Origin: a virus
Lineage: Duplodnaviria; Caudoviricetes
Reading direction: 5' to 3' (one strand)
DNA: 48,084 nt
Virus record (IMG/VR): IMGVR_UViG_3300032237_000447
Span: 1-48,084 of that record
Shown: one piece after another, positions 39,588-48,084 of the stretch
Position numbering within the stretch: position 1 is the first letter of the stretch
Layout: every line of letters starts with the position of its first letter
Translations under genes and position numbers: made by a program
Notes under the pieces: model-generated
What the model was told of the DNA's origin: nothing
Database searches by the model: none
The model's input: the letters and a program-made list of their open reading frames with translations, nothing else

Positions 39588-39664
39588 GGGCCTTTAGCTC
39601 AGTTGGTTAGAGCAAACGACTCATAATCGTTGGGGCGATGGTTCAAGTCCATCAAGGCCCACCA
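39588..39664 (+). tRNA. tRNA with CAU anticodon, Ile2-type
   Basis: Cloverleaf gggcctt/aaggccc, anticodon loop ctcataa, T loop ttcaagt, encoded CCA; the body resembles bacterial tRNA-Ile2 more than tRNA-Met. Confidence 0.9.
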
Positions 39665-39884: not shown

Positions 39885-40088
39885 ATGGCAACAGGTAAAG
39901 TAAAGTGGTTTAATGATGCAAAAGGTTTTGGATTTATTGTTCCAGATGGTGGTGGCGACGAATTGTTTGCACATTTCTCAGCTATTAATAGCAATGGATT
40001 TAAGAGTCTTAAAGAGAATCAAGCGGTAACTTTTGATGTAGTGCAAGGCCCAAAAGGCAAGCAAGCATCAAACATTATTCCGCTGTAA
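39885..40088 (+). CDS. cspA: Cold-shock protein
   Basis: [15 protein letters not shown] (RNP1), LFAHFS (RNP2). Confidence 0.95.
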
Positions 40089-40089
40089 A

Positions 40090-40446
40090 GAATTGTTGTA
40101 ATTCCTTCGTAGTGAAGGCACTGTGGACCCGGGTTCGATTCCCGGCATCTCCACCAAAGTGTATTGTCTACTGGAGAGTGGGGACAACCCTTCGAGGGCC
40201 CACCGTAAGATCCACACAGTATGCTTTGTTGGGGATGACAAGGTTTCGACATGGTGAGATAGCAAAAGAGGCAACACAGTAGGCGATGACTGTAAATCAA
40301 GCAAACTATGTAAATGCAAAAACATCTACAGGCGAAGTAACTGTTTCAGGTAAGAACATCAAGTTCTCTGCTCGTTCAGCACAACGCCAATCTTTAGCAG
40401 TTTAATCACTGCTTAGGGCAGGAAATGCCTCGTAACAGAAACCACC
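40090..40446 (+). ncRNA. ssrA: Circularly permuted (two-piece) tmRNA
   Basis: T arm and 3' acceptor strand (ccgggttcgattcccggcatctccacca, ending 40156) precede the 5' strand ggggatgac (40231); G3-U70 Ala identity pair; tag ORF 40316-40405 after taaat; outer boundaries approximate. Confidence 0.88.
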
Positions 40447-40447
40447 T

Positions 40448-40472
40448 AAAATGGCACTTCGGTGCCATTTTT
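40448..40472 (+). terminator. Intrinsic terminator
   Basis: aaaatggcac-ttcg-gtgccattttt. Confidence 0.85.
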
Positions 40473-40473
40473 C

Positions 40474-40502
40474 TTGACTTTTATAGTAGAACCTGTTATA
40501 GT
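40474..40502 (+). promoter_or_regulatory. Sigma70-like promoter for porin 1
   Basis: TTGACT-17 nt-TATAGT. Confidence 0.55.
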
Positions 40503-40541
40503 AGTAAAGCAGTTTACAAACTTAACAAGGAAAATTTATTC

Positions 40542-41318
40542 ATGAAAAAGATCTTAGTATCACTCCTGTTAGCCACAGGATTAACAACGGTCAATGCTGT
40601 AGAAGTACTTGATGGTAATCTAACTGGTAACATGACTATTAATAGCGATTATAAGTTCCGTGGTATTAGTCTAAGTCAAAATGGTCCGGCTATTCAAGGA
40701 GGTATTGACTACAATCACTCTACAGGTTTATACATCGGTAACTGGAACTCCAGTATGCGTGGTGTGCCGAATATGAACAACGACGATGTCGACAGTAACA
40801 GTGGTATGCAGTCTAATTTATATGCTGGCTGGAAGAAAGATGTTTACAAAGGTATTATCGTTGATGTAGGAACTATTAGTTATTTGTATCCTACTGCTAG
40901 TTCAGGTGGTTCAAAAATTAATTATACCACCAATGAAGTATATGCTGGTGTAGGGTATGGTCCTGTTGCGGTAAAGTACAGCCAAACTACTTCAAACTAC
41001 TTTGGCCTAAACAATAGTTCCGGTACACAGTACTATCAGGCCGATATCAAACAAGATCTTGGGTTTGTTAACAGTTCATTAAAGGATTTAAGTGTTGTAG
41101 CACACTATGGTCATACACAAGTGGCCAACAACAGTAATTTGAACTACAATGACATGAATATTGGTGCAATTTATTCTTTCCCAGGAAAGTGGGATTTGGC
41201 AGCTCGTTACTATACTAATAGTTCTATGAGTAACAAGTTCAAACAGTACAATAGTTGGAATGGTACTAACTTCTATCAAAATGCATTTGTAGCTAGTGTT
41301 ACCAAAACATTTGACTAA
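40542..41318 (+). CDS. TorF/Gcw_chp-family putative outer-membrane porin, copy 1
   Basis: Signal peptide MKKILVSLLLATG; SDYKFRGIS..GPAIQGGIDY, GLYIGNWNS; ends VTKTFD; ATG 40542 follows SD aagga. Confidence 0.85.
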   Translation: MKKILVSLLLATGLTTVNAVEVLDGNLTGNMTINSDYKFRGISLSQNGPAIQGGIDYNHSTGLYIGNWNSSMRGVPNMNNDDVDSNSGMQSNLYAGWKKDVYKGIIVDVGTISYLYPTASSGGSKINYTTNEVYAGVGYGPVAVKYSQTTSNYFGLNNSSGTQYYQADIKQDLGFVNSSLKDLSVVAHYGHTQVANNSNLNYNDMNIGAIYSFPGKWDLAARYYTNSSMSNKFKQYNSWNGTNFYQNAFVASVTKTFD

Positions 41319-41335
41319 TCTAGTCTAACGCAAAC

Positions 41336-41358
41336 AAAGGCACTTTGGTGCCTTTTTT
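41336..41358 (+). terminator. Intrinsic terminator
   Basis: aaaggcac-tttg-gtgcctttttt. Confidence 0.85.
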
Positions 41359-41481
41359 GTTGACCATAAACTACTAACATAAAGACCAAAAATGCCCAAT
41401 AACCTATAGAAATTTACTGCATTGGCAGTGAACCCAGTAAATAATATTGTTGTATAACTTTTATAAAAGGAAACACACAGA

Positions 41482-42219
41482 ATGAAAAAAATATTATTAG
41501 CATTGTTTGCGATCGCAGGTATTACTTCTGCTCACGCACAAGTAACTGGCAATTTAGGTTTGGCAAGTGACTATCGCTTCCGCGGTATTAGTCAAAGTCA
41601 AAATGGTCCAGCAGTACAAGGCGGTGTTGACTACACTCACTCAAGTGGTTTGTATATTGGCAACTGGAACAGTAGTGTATCTAGCCAACTGTACACAGGC
41701 GGAGCTGGTGTGGAGTCAGACATCTATGCTGGATACAAGAAAGACATTTACAAGGGCTTGACTATTGACGTTGGTTCTTATAACTATTTCTTTCCTAATG
41801 CCACCAATGGTAAGAATCCTAACTTCAACACACAAGAATTATTTGCTGGGTTAGGTTATGGTCCTGCTAGTGTCAAGTATAGCCGCAGTACAAGCAATTA
41901 CTTTGGCACACAAAATAGTGCTGGTACACAATACTACCAAGCTGATGTTAAGCAATCATTTGAGCCGGTAACTGCTAAACTCAAAGACTTGAGTTTTGTT
42001 GCTCACTATGGTCGTACTGCTGTTGCCAACAACGGTAATTTGAGTTACAACGATATCAACGTAGGCGCTGTCTACACCTTGCCAAAAGCATGGGAACTTG
42101 GTGTTCGTTATTACACAAATACAAGCAAGACAAGCACTTTCCAAAATGCCAACACCGTAAATGGTCAGCAGCTTTATAAAGATGCTTGGGTAGCTCTAGT
42201 AACAAAAACATTTGAATAA
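41482..42219 (+). CDS. TorF/Gcw_chp-family putative outer-membrane porin, copy 2
   Basis: Signal peptide ending AHA; SDYRFRGISQ..GPAVQGGVDY; ends VTKTFE. Confidence 0.88.
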   Translation: MKKILLALFAIAGITSAHAQVTGNLGLASDYRFRGISQSQNGPAVQGGVDYTHSSGLYIGNWNSSVSSQLYTGGAGVESDIYAGYKKDIYKGLTIDVGSYNYFFPNATNGKNPNFNTQELFAGLGYGPASVKYSRSTSNYFGTQNSAGTQYYQADVKQSFEPVTAKLKDLSFVAHYGRTAVANNGNLSYNDINVGAVYTLPKAWELGVRYYTNTSKTSTFQNANTVNGQQLYKDAWVALVTKTFE

Positions 42220-42244
42220 TTAAACTTATTCAAAGTTATACAGC

Positions 42245-42267
42245 AAAAGGCCCTTAGGGGCTTTTTT
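42245..42267 (+). terminator. Intrinsic terminator
   Basis: aaaaggccc-ttag-gggctttttt. Confidence 0.8.
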
Positions 42268-42284
42268 GTTGGCTAAGTATTTGC

Positions 42285-43130
42285 ATGATAGATATTATTA
42301 CAGTAGTATTTCGAGAAGAACTACCGATACTAAAACTACAAGCAGAAAGCATTTCGTTATACTGTAATCGTATGTGTTTACATACCATTTATGTTGTTAT
42401 AAATGATGACGGCATGACCGAAAATGATATTGATGTTTTGTGGTGGGGCAGATTTGCCAACCGAGTAAAAATTATTCATAGAAAACACTGGGATATCACC
42501 CTTGAAGGAAATGGGTGGCTTACACAACAACTATTAAAATTGTTGGCTGCAAAACAAAGCAACAGTGAATGGTCGATGGTTCTCGATGCTAAAACAATTA
42601 TTATACAACCAGTAGAACTTGACAAAATATTTGATGACACTGGAAAACTTACCTGGGGATCTATACCAATCTTTCCAGTATTTGATACTGCTAAACACAG
42701 AGTTAGCCAACTATTTAATATCAATCAAACACACATAGCAGGACCGGCTGGCATTCCTTTCTTTTTTCACAATCAAACAGTTAACAATATGATTGAAGAC
42801 ATTCAACAACGGACTAATCAAAGTTTTAGTAAATGGTTTTTAGATCAAGGTATGATTACTGAATTTATATTATACTCTGGTTACATACAATATCGAGATG
42901 GGTCACTGGATAAAATGTATGTTAACAGCAACAATTCTTATTACCCGTGTAATGTTTGTCACAGCGAAGTAGAATCATTTGATCGAAAGTATCAGCAAAT
43001 GCAACATCCCAATACACTAACTGTTAGTGTACATCGAAATGCCTGGACAAAACTAACAGATTTACAAAAACAAGCATATCGTAATTTATTACTTATTTCT
43101 GGTATTACTTGTGCCAAGGATCTTATATGA
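42285..43130 (+). CDS. Glycosyltransferase-like protein (GT-A-like)
   Basis: GWLTQQLLKL, MVLDAK, TEFILY. Confidence 0.55.
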   Translation: MIDIITVVFREELPILKLQAESISLYCNRMCLHTIYVVINDDGMTENDIDVLWWGRFANRVKIIHRKHWDITLEGNGWLTQQLLKLLAAKQSNSEWSMVLDAKTIIIQPVELDKIFDDTGKLTWGSIPIFPVFDTAKHRVSQLFNINQTHIAGPAGIPFFFHNQTVNNMIEDIQQRTNQSFSKWFLDQGMITEFILYSGYIQYRDGSLDKMYVNSNNSYYPCNVCHSEVESFDRKYQQMQHPNTLTVSVHRNAWTKLTDLQKQAYRNLLLISGITCAKDLI

Positions 43131-43669
43131 AAGCTATCGCAATGGTGGCACATCCGGACGACTGCGTTATTTTTGCCTACAGTTTTATACATGCCCATCC
43201 TGAACTAGACTGGACTGTGTGCTATCTTACATACAATGACCACGACTATCGAGGTAGTGAACTAAAATCATTTTGGGATAAACGAAATATTAAAACTAAA
43301 TTTCTGGGCTATGTTGATAATTGGCACGATATAGAAAATAAACAAATTAGTTTTGACGAAGCACATGCTTGGATTGATATTCAGGAAGCTGTTAGTGCTA
43401 ACGATATTGTGTTAACACACGATCAAGATGGCGACTACGGACATCTACATCATAAATTTGTATATGATGCGGTAGCCGACTATCACCCTAACATGATAAC
43501 TTTTGCTGGTATAGGCAAAGGCAATGTTAAATTTACTATACCTACAGGAACTTATACGTTAGATGAATTGCCCAAGCATGGCAAAATTATAGCTGAGTTC
43601 CATCAAACGGAACATGCCAATGAATATTTTATTCCTGACTCAGTTAAAAAACTATTAAATAGATCATGA
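43127..43669 (+). CDS. PIG-L/LmbE-family deacetylase, second copy
   Basis: VAHPDD, THDQDGDYGHLHH; ATGA overlap at 43127. Confidence 0.8.
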   Translation: MKAIAMVAHPDDCVIFAYSFIHAHPELDWTVCYLTYNDHDYRGSELKSFWDKRNIKTKFLGYVDNWHDIENKQISFDEAHAWIDIQEAVSANDIVLTHDQDGDYGHLHHKFVYDAVADYHPNMITFAGIGKGNVKFTIPTGTYTLDELPKHGKIIAEFHQTEHANEYFIPDSVKKLLNRS

Positions 43670-44484
43670 AAAAGAAATTAATGGTGGCGGGCTGTAGTTT
43701 TAGTGCCGTGAGTCAAACTCTGCCGGGTACTAGTTGGAGTGAGGTACTGGCAAACCAGTTAGATTGGGATCTAATTAATCTGGCTCGCCAAGGATGTAGT
43801 AACGGTGGTATTCGTATTCAAATTGAAGAGATTCGTAGGCAACGGCCAGACTTTGCTATAGTGAGTCCTACATTTTGGGACCGTATGGAAATACCTGCTA
43901 CGGCTGCTCCGTATGATTGGGTGAATAATATACCGGGTGGTGAGAATCCTCCACTGGAGCAACACTTACAAAATCGTGAATTAAAGAATGGTTACAATCG
44001 ACAAGATGGCATCGACAATGTCAACTACGGTAATAATAACTACAACATGATCTGTGAAACTATTTTCAGTCTAGCAGAAAACTATACACATCCATATCGT
44101 TCTGGATTAATTAGTAAAGACGCACAAAGAGGAGTTCGTGCCTGGATCGACAGCATCTACGACAATGCCTGGAAAAAACAAATGGATGAGTGGATTATGG
44201 TTGAAGGTGTGCTACAGATGTATCTAGATGGTATTAACTTTTTAGTACTGCCAAACTTATTATGGCCATTTGATCCTAACAATGTAGATCAATGGCGCAA
44301 TGCATTTCCAAAAATTATTACAGATCAGTATATACAACTAGAATCTATTCAAAGCCCACAAGCAATATGTGGAAATAATCCTTTTAAAGGAGATGATCCT
44401 GGCTACCACGGCAACGAACAAAGTCAAATTATTATTGCCAACAACTGGTACAATCGCATTAAAAACGATTTTAATCTAGTTTAG
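43666..44484 (+). CDS. SGNH-like hydrolase
   Basis: VAGCSFS, NLARQGCSN, PGYH. Confidence 0.6.
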   Translation: MKKKLMVAGCSFSAVSQTLPGTSWSEVLANQLDWDLINLARQGCSNGGIRIQIEEIRRQRPDFAIVSPTFWDRMEIPATAAPYDWVNNIPGGENPPLEQHLQNRELKNGYNRQDGIDNVNYGNNNYNMICETIFSLAENYTHPYRSGLISKDAQRGVRAWIDSIYDNAWKKQMDEWIMVEGVLQMYLDGINFLVLPNLLWPFDPNNVDQWRNAFPKIITDQYIQLESIQSPQAICGNNPFKGDDPGYHGNEQSQIIIANNWYNRIKNDFNLV

Positions 44485-45541
44485 GAATCTTTATTCTAAG
44501 CAGGTTGTGCATCTGTTTTAAGGTCTTGTGTTTTAATGTTTGTACAAGATTACAATTATGTTCCAACTCCCCTTGTATCTGACTGTATATTTCTCTAGGA
44601 TCTTGCTCGCTTAACCACTGACATTGTTCAAATGCATGATCAAATCTACGCACATGATCTTCTATGTTATCGTAATGTTCGTTTACAACCTTGCTAAATG
44701 TTTCAAATCCTAAATTTCGTAGGTTTTTTAAGAAGCCAACTGCACCAAACATCACAAATAACCTTTTAGCCAGCAACGGTTTAGTAGTTTTTTCGCTGAA
44801 GAAAAAAGTATCCGAGGTTCCTAATGTTTCACAAACAACTGTATAGTTTGTCTGCTGATACATTTTATACGGCATAAAGGGACTAATGTTTTTGACTAGA
44901 TTCTCTTGTACTTCCCAAGTAAGATCTAAGTTAGGGCTAATATAAGGATAATTTAATTTTGTTGACGGAAAGCAATCATGTACTTGTTTAGTCCAGGGAT
45001 CTATAACTCCACCTACAAACATTTCTCTATAGGTTACAATACTGCGCTCTAATAGTCCTGATTGTGTAAATGCCAGCATCGCATAATCTCTGTGCGGTCT
45101 ACGAGCTCCTAGTAATACATCAAAGTCATAAGGTTTATTGTATCCACTGGTGTCAATAATTTCGTTAAATTTCAAAAGGTTATAACTCCACCAAGGACGA
45201 TAAATCATACACGACTCATCTACTAACTCTTTACGATGTAAGCCGCCCAATGCCAATACATAATTGCGTATGCCGTTTTTTTCAATCCAAATTTTGATCC
45301 ACTCTAAAGGACGATACTCGATGTCGGTTAGAATAACAAGATCAAATATACTTAGGTCTAGGTGTTCTATCTCTGGCTTATATGCAAAATCGTTACGTTC
45401 ATTACACATAACAGGCAATGCAGCAATCTTAAAGTCACTACGCATAACTTCGTTGAGGTCACTTGTTACCGGTTCAATATTCCAGTCTATTGCCGCTAAC
45501 TCTCCCCACTTAGGACAATATATAGGATAAGGGATCTTCAT
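44471..45541 (-). CDS. Glycosyltransferase-like protein
   Basis: LLGARRPHR, VVCET, FSEKTTKP, LRNLGFETF, YDNI. Confidence 0.55.
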   Translation of the reverse strand: MKIPYPIYCPKWGELAAIDWNIEPVTSDLNEVMRSDFKIAALPVMCNERNDFAYKPEIEHLDLSIFDLVILTDIEYRPLEWIKIWIEKNGIRNYVLALGGLHRKELVDESCMIYRPWWSYNLLKFNEIIDTSGYNKPYDFDVLLGARRPHRDYAMLAFTQSGLLERSIVTYREMFVGGVIDPWTKQVHDCFPSTKLNYPYISPNLDLTWEVQENLVKNISPFMPYKMYQQTNYTVVCETLGTSDTFFFSEKTTKPLLAKRLFVMFGAVGFLKNLRNLGFETFSKVVNEHYDNIEDHVRRFDHAFEQCQWLSEQDPREIYSQIQGELEHNCNLVQTLKHKTLKQMHNLLRIKIPKLD

Positions 45542-46398
45542 AGACGATTTTTAATTACGTTAAGATAGTGGTCAAAGTCACAAACTACTTGTGCGTCGTT
45601 GTCCCAATGTAGGCTTAGGCTTAGGTCAGGAACGGTATCAGCAAAACAATTATAATTGTTTGTGAAGTTTTTTAGTTTATCTAAACTATCGTATTCAAAC
45701 CGTCGTTGTTCTTGTATGTCTATATCGTGACGATACATTGCCCAGTTGCCTAGTAATTCATATTCACTGAACCATTTAATAATGTTACCAGTACCCCATG
45801 GTGGCACAGTAGGCATGCCCGGTACAGCATCTATAATAGCATCAAGGAACCATTTGTTATGCTTATGTTCTAACAAAGTCTTAAGTGCTTGCCAATCTTC
45901 CTTATGTACAGGCACTAGCTCTGTAACAAAACAATTTGGAGTTTGTCTTTCAATACCTACCACACTTTCAAGTACTCCGCGATAGCTATCGTGTGTGGTG
46001 TTAGGTATAATTAAATAGTTTAAGCGACCATCCTTATAGCACTCGTACGGCTCAACCATAAACGTATCAGGATCATGCATCAATACAACGTCATCATCTA
46101 AGTAGTCACGTACAGCTAACTTTAATGCCTGTTGCCACAACCACTTACCGCGATAGTCATCTGCAAAGATCCAGTGATCAATTTCGGGATATTCATTTAG
46201 TATCACACTGTCTGGCAGGTATTCGAATCGAGTTGTATCTATGTTATATTTTGCAAAGATACTCCATAATTCATCTTTGGGTACAGGACTACTAATAACT
46301 GTACGATCTATCCCTTTAAGGAAATGATCAAACTGCATGGTCAAACAAGCATGTGGTATGCGATAACGGGCAAGGAATACTACGCGAGCTACTGTCAT
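45538..46398 (-). CDS. Glycosyltransferase-like protein related to 42285..43130
   Basis: WLWQQALKL, MHDPDT, FSEYELLG. Confidence 0.55.
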   Translation of the reverse strand: MTVARVVFLARYRIPHACLTMQFDHFLKGIDRTVISSPVPKDELWSIFAKYNIDTTRFEYLPDSVILNEYPEIDHWIFADDYRGKWLWQQALKLAVRDYLDDDVVLMHDPDTFMVEPYECYKDGRLNYLIIPNTTHDSYRGVLESVVGIERQTPNCFVTELVPVHKEDWQALKTLLEHKHNKWFLDAIIDAVPGMPTVPPWGTGNIIKWFSEYELLGNWAMYRHDIDIQEQRRFEYDSLDKLKNFTNNYNCFADTVPDLSLSLHWDNDAQVVCDFDHYLNVIKNRL

Positions 46399-47390
46399 AC
46401 ACGATTACAACTGTTTACGCAACCATACAATCGTCCTTCGTTAACACTGGCCTTGGTCCAGGTCTCTTCTATACTATCAAACCAACTCATACAATGCTCT
46501 AGATTGTATTGTAAAGCATTGTTTTCTTTTACTAAAGGAATTAACTGTTCGTTACCAGGGTGAGTCATTTGACCAGGGTAGAATCCCAAGAAACAACAAG
46601 GCCATACACTACCGTCTGCGGCTATGTATAATTCTTCTAATCGTTTATGCTGGCATATCATATTAAGTATGGGAGTATCCTTAATTGGTTTAACTGTGCG
46701 ATGATCAAACCAAGTGATATGATCTTCGACCATACGCTTACTATCTATTGGCCAATCTTGTTTAGGTCCTACCCAATGACTAAGCTCCCCATCACGAGTA
46801 AACACAGGTCCTTGATCTCTACCTTCGTGTATGTTTTCAAATTGCTTAAAACCCCAGGCTTCGGCTAACAATCTAGCAGCCGGTTCTTGATCGCGATTGT
46901 GATCAAACGGAATCCATCTCCATATAGCATATCCTCCTGCCGCAATAAAAGAACGAGCATTTTCTACCACACGATCCCAATTGGTATCTTGTCGATACAG
47001 TGCGTGTGTTGCTGGGTCAATTCCATCCAATGCCCAACCGATACTAACCCCAGGCAAGGCAAACTTTGCCCACCATTCAGGACTACGCATACTTCCATTA
47101 GTGTTGATATGTACCTGCACTTCTTGGCTAACCAGCCATTCTACTATTTCAAGTCCATCACGTGCTGTGCCAAAGTCGCCTAAATTACCATTAAAACTAA
47201 CACCCTTTGATAACTGTTTTAAAAAATCAGGTCGTAATATATGTTGAACATTCTGTAAACTTAGCTCTGTATCTGGGTATCCAGAGTTAAAGTCCATACC
47301 GCGGTAGTTCCGCATACACATGGGACAACGAGCATTACAACGGGTAGTGAGTTCTATTTGTACCTGACGAATGTCAGCTAGTTTTAACAT
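46395..47390 (-). CDS. Radical SAM protein with a SPASM/twitch-like C-terminus
   Basis: CNARCPMC, GNLGD, NTNG, DG; C...YIAADGSVWPCC...CVNSC. Confidence 0.85.
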   Translation of the reverse strand: MLKLADIRQVQIELTTRCNARCPMCMRNYRGMDFNSGYPDTELSLQNVQHILRPDFLKQLSKGVSFNGNLGDFGTARDGLEIVEWLVSQEVQVHINTNGSMRSPEWWAKFALPGVSIGWALDGIDPATHALYRQDTNWDRVVENARSFIAAGGYAIWRWIPFDHNRDQEPAARLLAEAWGFKQFENIHEGRDQGPVFTRDGELSHWVGPKQDWPIDSKRMVEDHITWFDHRTVKPIKDTPILNMICQHKRLEELYIAADGSVWPCCFLGFYPGQMTHPGNEQLIPLVKENNALQYNLEHCMSWFDSIEETWTKASVNEGRLYGCVNSCNRV

Positions 47391-47414
47391 GAAAATATTT
47401 ATGGACCATAGAGG

Positions 47415-47443
47415 TTGACAAAGTATAAATACTCGTCTATAAT
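47415..47443 (+). promoter_or_regulatory. Consensus sigma70 promoter with an embedded T4 late TATAAATA
   Basis: TTGACA-17 nt-TATAAT; tataaata at 47424-47431. Confidence 0.8.
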
Positions 47444-47452
47444 AATACTATT

Positions 47453-47554
47453 ATGAAACATTTAACCTATACACTCTTAGCAACACTACCAAGTAATATT
47501 TGGGTGTGGGCCAATGATTGTGGCTTAGAACAAGGAGTTAAGGTTTTTGAATAG
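47453..47554 (+). CDS. Putative attenuator leader peptide (33 aa, MKHLTYTLLATLPSNIWVWANDCGLEQGVKVFE)
   Basis: ATG about 10 nt after the -10 box; its stop codon lies in the antiterminator 5' strand. Confidence 0.6.
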   Translation: MKHLTYTLLATLPSNIWVWANDCGLEQGVKVFE

Positions 47555-47577
47555 TAGTAAGGATTTGTTTATTATTC

Positions 47578-47608
47578 AAAAGCCTCTAAGTAGTTAGGGG
47601 CTTTTTTT
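47578..47608 (+). terminator. Conditional intrinsic terminator (attenuator)
   Basis: aaaagcctctaa-gtag-ttaggggcttttttt; the 5' arm is shared with the alternative 15-bp stem 47541-47555/47571-47585. Confidence 0.8.
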
Positions 47609-47624
47609 ATGAAAAGGAAAAAGT

Positions 47625-47798
47625 ATGACAATTGATTACTCTAAATTGAATGATCGTATTGTGGAACAAGCTAAACAAGCGGCCAAGGCTCACTTTGCGT
47701 TAAGCGAAGATCAGAAGGCTGAATTGTTCCAGAATAAGATCGAGCGGGCCAAGGCCATGCTCAAATCAAGAGATGTTTACGTCCAGATAGAGGACTAA
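47625..47798 (+). CDS. 57-aa hypothetical helical protein
   Basis: SD aagga; MTIDYSKLNDRIVEQAKQAAKAHFALSEDQKAELFQNKIERAKAMLKSRDVYVQIED. Confidence 0.55.
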   Translation: MTIDYSKLNDRIVEQAKQAAKAHFALSEDQKAELFQNKIERAKAMLKSRDVYVQIED

Positions 47799-47908
47799 AC
47801 AGAGCACCAAGTGGTTGCAGGCAACGAGGGCCTGTGTTACACTATAACTTAACACAAACGGGCGGGCTACGGGATGGAATCTCTTTTGTGAGACTAAAAA
47901 TCGTAGCG

Positions 47909-48014
47909 TAATAAAGCATACTGCCACTTAATACATATATGCGGAGTATTGCCGGCACACCTTCCGCGGGTCAGTTACAGGTTCGAAACTGTAACGCAGT
48001 ATGCTTTATTACCA
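47909..48014 (+). ncRNA. tRNA-like structured element with a long closing stem, a T-loop hairpin and 3' CCA
   Basis: 16-bp inverted repeat 47909-47924/47996-48011 followed by cca; inner stems gcgga/tccgc and gttacag-gttcgaaa-ctgtaac. Confidence 0.5.
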
Positions 48015-48035
48015 GCTTTCTAAAGAGAGCTGTAT

Positions 48036-48084
48036 GGAGAAGAAGCATCAATGGTGATGCAGTGGACTGTAAATCCGCCGCCTA
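48036..48084 (+). tRNA. tRNA-Tyr(GUA), truncated by the window end
   Basis: D arm gcatc-aatggt-gatgc; anticodon arm gtgga-ctgtaaa-tccgc. Confidence 0.8.

Follow-up and report, generated by a model that had tools for sequence, protein, structure and literature searches.

A putative ribosome-coupled transcription attenuator ahead of tRNA genes in jumbo phages

Why phages carry tRNA genes is a long-standing question. In the accessible text of the papers on cultured relatives of the phage studied here, phage tRNAs are explained by codon usage (PMC6102473, PMC8504454), and recent work, as far as its available text goes, lists cleavage of tRNAs among the common outputs of immunity. The locus at the end of the window (the whole 48,084-nt stretch of phage DNA that was analysed) raises the question in a more specific form: does the translation of a short leader ORF decide whether the tRNA genes behind it are transcribed? 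Judging from the sequences of this locus and its relatives, we consider it probable that the leader ORF, an alternative stem and an intrinsic terminator together form a ribosome-coupled transcription attenuator, the codons of which would sample the tRNAs of the downstream block. Translation of the leader and the in vivo direction of control are the parts of this model that we infer.

Layout and genomic setting of the element

The promoter at the head of the element (Table 1) is as perfect as the initial annotation had claimed, and of 30 promoter-like sites at positions 40000-48084 it alone matches 12/12. Its spacer contains an octamer, TATAAATA, which we take to resemble a T4 late promoter; the composite of sigma70 and TATAAATA elements was found again upstream of many leaders. 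The ATG of the leader lies 9 nt past the -10 hexamer and has no Shine-Dalgarno sequence, in agreement with the earlier description of a near-leaderless 33-aa ORF containing W-V-W (47501-47509). The motif TAAATA is found 4-5 nt ahead of the ATG in 3 of the 45 long ORFs of the window, and also on the opposite strand, before 47390. The TATAAATA octamer in the sigma70 spacer and the TAAATA motifs near ATGs suggest a late promoter and leaderless mRNAs.

Table 1. Positions in the window of the features of the element and its surroundings.
Feature	Position	Strand	Remarks
sigma70-type promoter, TTGACA-17-TATAAT	47415..47443	+	12/12 match
TATAAATA octamer	47424-47431	+	within promoter spacer
Leader ORF	47453..47554	+	33 codons, near-leaderless; predicted sensing zone, codons 2-26
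Antiterminator, 5' strand	47541..47555	+	last four codons, stop and one further base
Antiterminator, 3' strand	47571..47585	+	final four bases shared with the terminator, as the first half of its core 5' arm
Intrinsic terminator	47578..47608	+	A run before, 8-bp core hairpin, U run after
57-aa ORF	47625..47798	+	Shine-Dalgarno-like run; first gene past the terminator
Structured RNA	47810..47907	+	three covarying stems and a predicted 4-bp pseudoknot
Long stem around tRNA-like T-arm	47908..48012	+	
Putative tRNA-Tyr(GUA), 5' part	48036..48084	+	first tRNA of the array; truncated by window end
Radical SAM gene	46395..47390	-	divergent; syntenic marker for fetching relatives; outside the switch

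The terminator, likewise recovered as described, pairs 47582-47589 with 47594-47601 in its core, and is absent from the output of a simple terminator scan. The alternative stem over the end of the leader and its stop also stood up: it comprises 15 bp including two G-U pairs, and its duplex is predicted at -19.1 kcal/mol, as against -5.6 for shuffled sequences (z -6.7). The two structures had been described as mutually exclusive. Their overlap is real, but the antiterminator takes only 4 of the 8 core pairs of the terminator, and competing and hybrid folds lie within 0.5 kcal/mol; the structures therefore compete rather than strictly exclude each other.

Several elements separate the terminator from the array. 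The 57-aa ORF, which has no Pfam or PHROG family, is kept directly past the terminator in many relatives and is the first protein that the switch would control. The T-arm element is without a standard anticodon arm, and the tRNA model gives its counterpart in a close relative 26.9 bits. The identification of the first tRNA as tRNA-Tyr holds in part: it is based on a 47-nt match of 93.6% to an annotated phage tRNA-Tyr, but the gene is truncated in the window and drew no call from either ARAGORN or Rfam.

The DNA polymerase encoded in the window is closest to those of the jumbo phages Phosso, Atu_ph07 and the Rak2-like group (43-49% identity), and related complete records measure 337-353 kb. DNA contigs from four sequencing runs contain strain variants, none of which reaches past the window into its array. 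Searches of annotated phage DNA matched only the tRNA-Tyr piece with the window region as query, and gave chance matches only with the region of a relative, L455. A permuted tmRNA of betaproteobacterial type (40053-40474) suggests a betaproteobacterial host; permuted tmRNAs are also close to the leaders of L205, L253, L257 and L393. In the same part of the window, a tRNA-Met (39588-39664) lies beside a cold-shock-like ORF, and positions 40425-42219 hold a tandem pair of paralogous ORFs that start with signal-peptide-like segments, have a Phe-acidic terminal end and resemble outer-membrane proteins.

A predicted RNA switch under selection

We collected 444 loci through the adjoining radical SAM gene and three DNA patterns, plus one annotated record, and took as tRNA-linked sites those in which a promoter is followed by a terminator at up to 330 nt and by a tRNA at up to 2 kb. 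Across these uncultured phage contigs, a first-ATG ORF of 20-70 codons ending 20-45 nt ahead of the terminator was present at 32 of the 36 distinct tRNA-linked sites and at 0 of the 10 promoter-plus-terminator sites without a downstream tRNA, so that the attenuator layout ahead of phage tRNA genes is conserved; these counts are biased and no neutral census, because the search patterns were derived from the element, one of them including the first codons. Three further loci (L224, L243 and L247) carry a promoter and a terminator ahead of tRNAs, about 217-236 nt apart, with a first-ATG ORF of only 2-5 codons. A contig search with a loose downstream-motif pattern returned 120 matches, which were chance-like.

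The 43 distinct leader peptides fall into 26 lineages at <60% identity. Leader length ranges from 27 to 62 codons across the family, and the distance between stop and terminator remains at 25-35 nt. Strict detection of perfect helices gave only 15 sites, and energy-based tests were used instead. In the 26 lineages, the antiterminator strands of the same leader pair at -15.5 kcal/mol on average, whereas swapping the partners gives -10.1 (0 of 20,000 permutations), and the corresponding value for 40 control terminators that follow long ORFs is -4.6 kcal/mol. Six lineages are no better than swapped in the narrow window used: five of them have a longer helix that starts upstream, and the sixth (L006) is weak.

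A MAFFT alignment shows two-sided changes in 9 of 13 antiterminator pairs and in 6 of 9 terminator pairs, and 96% of the alignment cells of the terminator helix are paired. The covariation score of either helix was reached by 0 of 500 shuffles, a comparison in which the helices have an advantage over slid controls since their structure was taken from the same sequences. The leader ORF and both stems, whose conservation before tRNA arrays in related phages the initial annotation had named as a check, thus recur across the 26 lineages with both helices covarying, and the RNA switch is under selection. Its alternative helix takes the 5' arm of the terminator, and the other strand of that helix would lie under the ribosome at the leader end, which is the arrangement that defines this class of attenuator.

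We also examined 17 regions near the tRNA clusters of nine cultured jumbo phages, with a terminator scan that misses weak U runs. The layout is present in three of them: Atu_ph07, where the leader is gp469 (42 codons, z -5.2); Phosso, where it is gene 599 (54 codons, z -4.8) and TTGACG elements stand directly past the terminator; and RsoM2USA, which has two minus-strand leaders, at 87361-87248 (leader A) and 112124-112047 (leader B) of its record. In both RsoM2USA leaders the stem containing the stop is in competition with a hairpin, and the same TATAAATA motif stands upstream. Leader A is absent from the annotation of the record, and leader B, which has a weak U run and was missed by the terminator scan, was chosen by eye. 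The layout was not found in the fetched tRNA-near regions of the other six of the nine phages (GAP32, XbC2, SHEFM2K, Paride, XacN1 and RaK2), nor in Limnohabitans phage DC31. Between the terminator of leader B and a tRNA-Pro, RsoM2USA has a short Lys/Arg-rich ORF, which we take to be similar to the ribosome rescue factor ArfA.

Leader codons, downstream promoters and rival readings

The window leader is of mixed composition: it contains 19 of the 20 amino acids (no Arg; p about 0.02 against same-length protein stretches) in 26 distinct codons. Across the family, 24 of the 26 leaders are richer in amino-acid types than protein stretches of the same length, by a mean of +2.1. For comparison with the arrays we fetched 20 longer regions and detected a leader in 18. 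The amino acids of first-block tRNAs, those ahead of the first internal promoter, were found in the leader in 55 of 55 cases (40.4 expected), and those with later tRNAs in 149 of 160 (131.2 expected); amino acids without a tRNA had no excess (97 of 127, with 100.5 expected). At the codon level, the leader offered a readable codon for 51 of the 55 first-block tRNAs, against 33.1 expected, and the match of the first block persisted when the last 7, structure-bound codons were dropped (53/55 versus 37.0 expected).

These loci are related, and collapsing them left 12 lineages after L458, the contig of which ends inside the array, was dropped. Among the 12, the missing amino acids that do have a tRNA numbered 7.7, compared with 14.4 after swapping arrays (P 0.01). 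In the 6 lineages with incomplete arrays the swap was not significant (2.7 versus 4.2, P 0.23), owing to a common Cys-Trp-Glu-Gly-Thr core. A counter-example is L460, in which the leader lacks four amino acids for which its own array has tRNAs. The window itself contains a Tyr codon in its leader and only a partial tRNA-Tyr, and the match between leader and array is known from relatives alone because the window's array lies beyond the window end.

The clearest control comes from the cultured phages: the two leaders of RsoM2USA each stand before a different tRNA block. Residues of leader A come from the amino acids of block A in 33 of 36 cases and from those of block B in 5 of 36; for leader B, 21 of 24 residues come from block B, covering all 9 of its types, and 6 of 24 from block A. 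For block-specific residues the leaders are opposite (Fisher p 3e-9). We also considered a leader made to contain all 20 amino acids, a reading that holds for phages with full arrays. Leaders of reduced-array phages miss 2-4 amino acids and those of RsoM2USA have 13 and 11 types, and because these leaders are incomplete, matching to the array fits better. These comparisons point to a sensor made up of several codons that correspond to the tRNAs downstream.

Behind the terminator, the structured RNA motif occurs in 22 of the 43 family loci, and its stems covary. It consists of a hairpin with a conserved 7-nt loop, a second hairpin whose loop can pair with an upstream 4-mer, a G-rich linker and a third stem; the predicted pseudoknot pairing holds in 30 of 30 copies and is compensatory in three. 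The motif has no Rfam match. Its second loop is, as we presume, loosely boxA-like, and the RNA might be an antitermination or processing signal.

It is possible that a genuine attenuator controls chiefly the 57-aa ORF and the structured RNA, with the tRNAs transcribed from promoters of their own past the terminator. This is the case that had been named as one that would refute the proposal, and it is partly present: promoter-like sites of at least 10/12 stand between the terminator and the first tRNA at 12 of 32 loci (TAAATA at 4 of 32), the two closest relatives have an 11/12 site at the downstream RNA motif, with which such a site coincides at several loci, and internal promoters of 11-12/12 lie further along in most arrays. 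However, 20 of the 32 loci have no such site before the first tRNA, and the best in the window is 9/12. The apparent promoter at the RNA motif is better read as RNA structure, since its bases covary as the pseudoknot in every copy. Transcription from separate promoters gives no reason for the match between leader codons and tRNA identity. We therefore regard this explanation as unlikely, and favour the attenuator acting on tRNA genes, with one restriction: most arrays contain internal promoters, so control by the leader probably extends no further than the first tRNA block.

Another reading would have the switch set by a protein or RNA factor, or by a leaky terminator, with the ORF being a small peptide gene or encoding an arrest peptide of the TnaC type. 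In its favour, one central Trp is kept 16-25 codons from the start in 24 of the 25 lineages that have Trp. The residues at fixed distance that mark TnaC-type arrest were not found, however: this Trp lies 11-25 codons before the stop, and there is therefore no fixed tunnel register. The peptide drifts within the window subfamily, where non-synonymous codon differences (39) exceed synonymous ones (22), and a functional leader peptide was rejected as a candidate, with no signal of purifying selection and no Pfam or PHROG match. The constancy of the distance between stop and terminator over leaders of such different length, and a composition that follows the tRNA block, also speak against a peptide or factor, and we hold this reading to be quite improbable.

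A Trp-specific, trpL-like attenuator sensing through W-V-W, the motif pointed out in the initial annotation, can draw on the two Trp codons of the window leader, on Trp being present in 25 of 26 lineages (13.9 expected) and on a tRNA-Trp in nearly all arrays, but it is hardly tenable, given that W-x-W occurs in 2 of 26 lineages and a single Trp in 19, that Cys is kept just as well (26 of 26; 11.0 expected), that there is no tandem run of Trp codons, and that RsoM2USA leader A has no Trp before a block with no tRNA-Trp.

Attenuation logic and known systems

How the attenuator would work can be followed by folding the nascent window RNA with the bases under the ribosome masked. In this simulation the probability of the antiterminator is at least 0.99 for an A site at any position up to codon 26, and it is lost from codon 27; in unmasked nascent RNA, with no ribosome, it is 1.0 (equilibrium folding, window only). 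Together with the covariation, this agrees with the earlier suggestion that a ribosome reaching the stop would block the antiterminator. In equilibrium folding of the full RNA with a free antiterminator strand, the terminator has a probability of 0.61-0.99 under 7 of 8 settings. Since the terminator mostly wins over the full RNA, readthrough must be kinetic.

We propose that a ribosome loads at the 5' end of the RNA and trails RNA polymerase. If it arrives at about codon 27 in time, it would cover the 5' strand of the antiterminator, the terminator would fold and transcription would end at about 47608. A delay at codons 2-26 through a shortage of charged tRNA, or the failure of any ribosome to load, would let the antiterminator fold first, and the polymerase would go on to transcribe the 57-aa ORF, the structured RNA and the first tRNA block. 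The result would be a negative feedback in which tRNA shortage turns on tRNA supply. Host anticodon nucleases, starvation and the decay of host tRNAs during infection are candidate causes of such a shortage.

The enterobacterial leader-peptide attenuators include trpL, hisL, pheL, and the multivalent thrL and ilvL. The phage element resembles them in its short leader ORF, in the stem overlapping a terminator and in codons that match what the operon supplies. It differs from them in that the leader has no tandem regulatory codons and in that the output is tRNA rather than biosynthetic enzymes. A 1:2 hairpin of the trpL type, which brings about termination when the leader is untranslated, is not seen; the untranslated phage RNA folds the antiterminator. 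Because the antiterminator forms without a ribosome, an untranslated leader would mean readthrough, unlike in trpL and as in mycobacterial whiB7.

According to the available text of PMC10274678, efficient translation of the whiB7 uORF leads to an intrinsic terminator, and stalling or loss of the start leads to an antiterminator and readthrough. Single codons set which shortage is sensed, and the M. smegmatis uORF contains 19 of the 20 amino acids (PMC10274678). This system is an experimental precedent for a promoter-proximal uORF of mixed composition with the same logic (PMC10274678), and, as far as that text describes it, it differs in having an Ala-rich uORF and, as its output, a bacterial transcription factor, whereas the phage element stands before tRNA genes and its composition tracks the block. 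The likeness is one of logic and layout. In vmlR and yxjB of Bacillus subtilis, as described in the accessible part of the literature, leader translation likewise sets terminator against antiterminator; there, drug-induced stalling is sensed and resistance genes are controlled, with no link to tRNA supply.

Like the predicted phage switch, T-box riboswitches respond to uncharged tRNA by controlling whether transcription terminates, but they bind the tRNA directly and have no leader ORF. No T-box covariance-model match was found in the window, nor among 150 of the 169 matches listed for 12 related loci. The Rfam leader families (Phe_leader, PyrR and others) stayed below threshold, at 25.6 versus 55 bits and 17.7 versus 54 bits.

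A literature search that reached few subscription papers found no description of a phage tRNA attenuator or of attenuation control of tRNA genes. Within their main text, the genome papers of Atu_ph07 and RsoM2USA do not mention attenuation, a leader or a terminator (PMC6102473, PMC8504454), and the accessible text of a jumbo-phage review has no mention of attenuation, leader peptides or antitermination (PMC7824862). Leader-peptide attenuation is a known principle; its use for phage tRNA blocks with block-matched codons would be new as far as that search reached, and it would place tRNA genes themselves under attenuation. Phage tRNAs would then be made in response to a shortage, as a leader reading its own block's codons implies, instead of being supplied constantly. 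More tentatively, and with rather less than even confidence, we suggest that in T4-like jumbo phages each tRNA block has a test ORF of its own with matching codons, and that the loss of a particular host tRNA, including that caused by anticodon-nuclease immunity, would stall the ribosome on the codon concerned and induce the block with the replacement tRNA, a protein-free inducible counter-defence. Such a leader, present in three cultured phages, would be a ready reporter of which tRNAs become scarce during infection.

As to the arrays themselves, ARAGORN called tRNA-Ser(act) and tRNA-Leu(aag) in those of L463, L448, L450 and L393, with A at the wobble position; anticodons with a wobble A are rare in bacteria.
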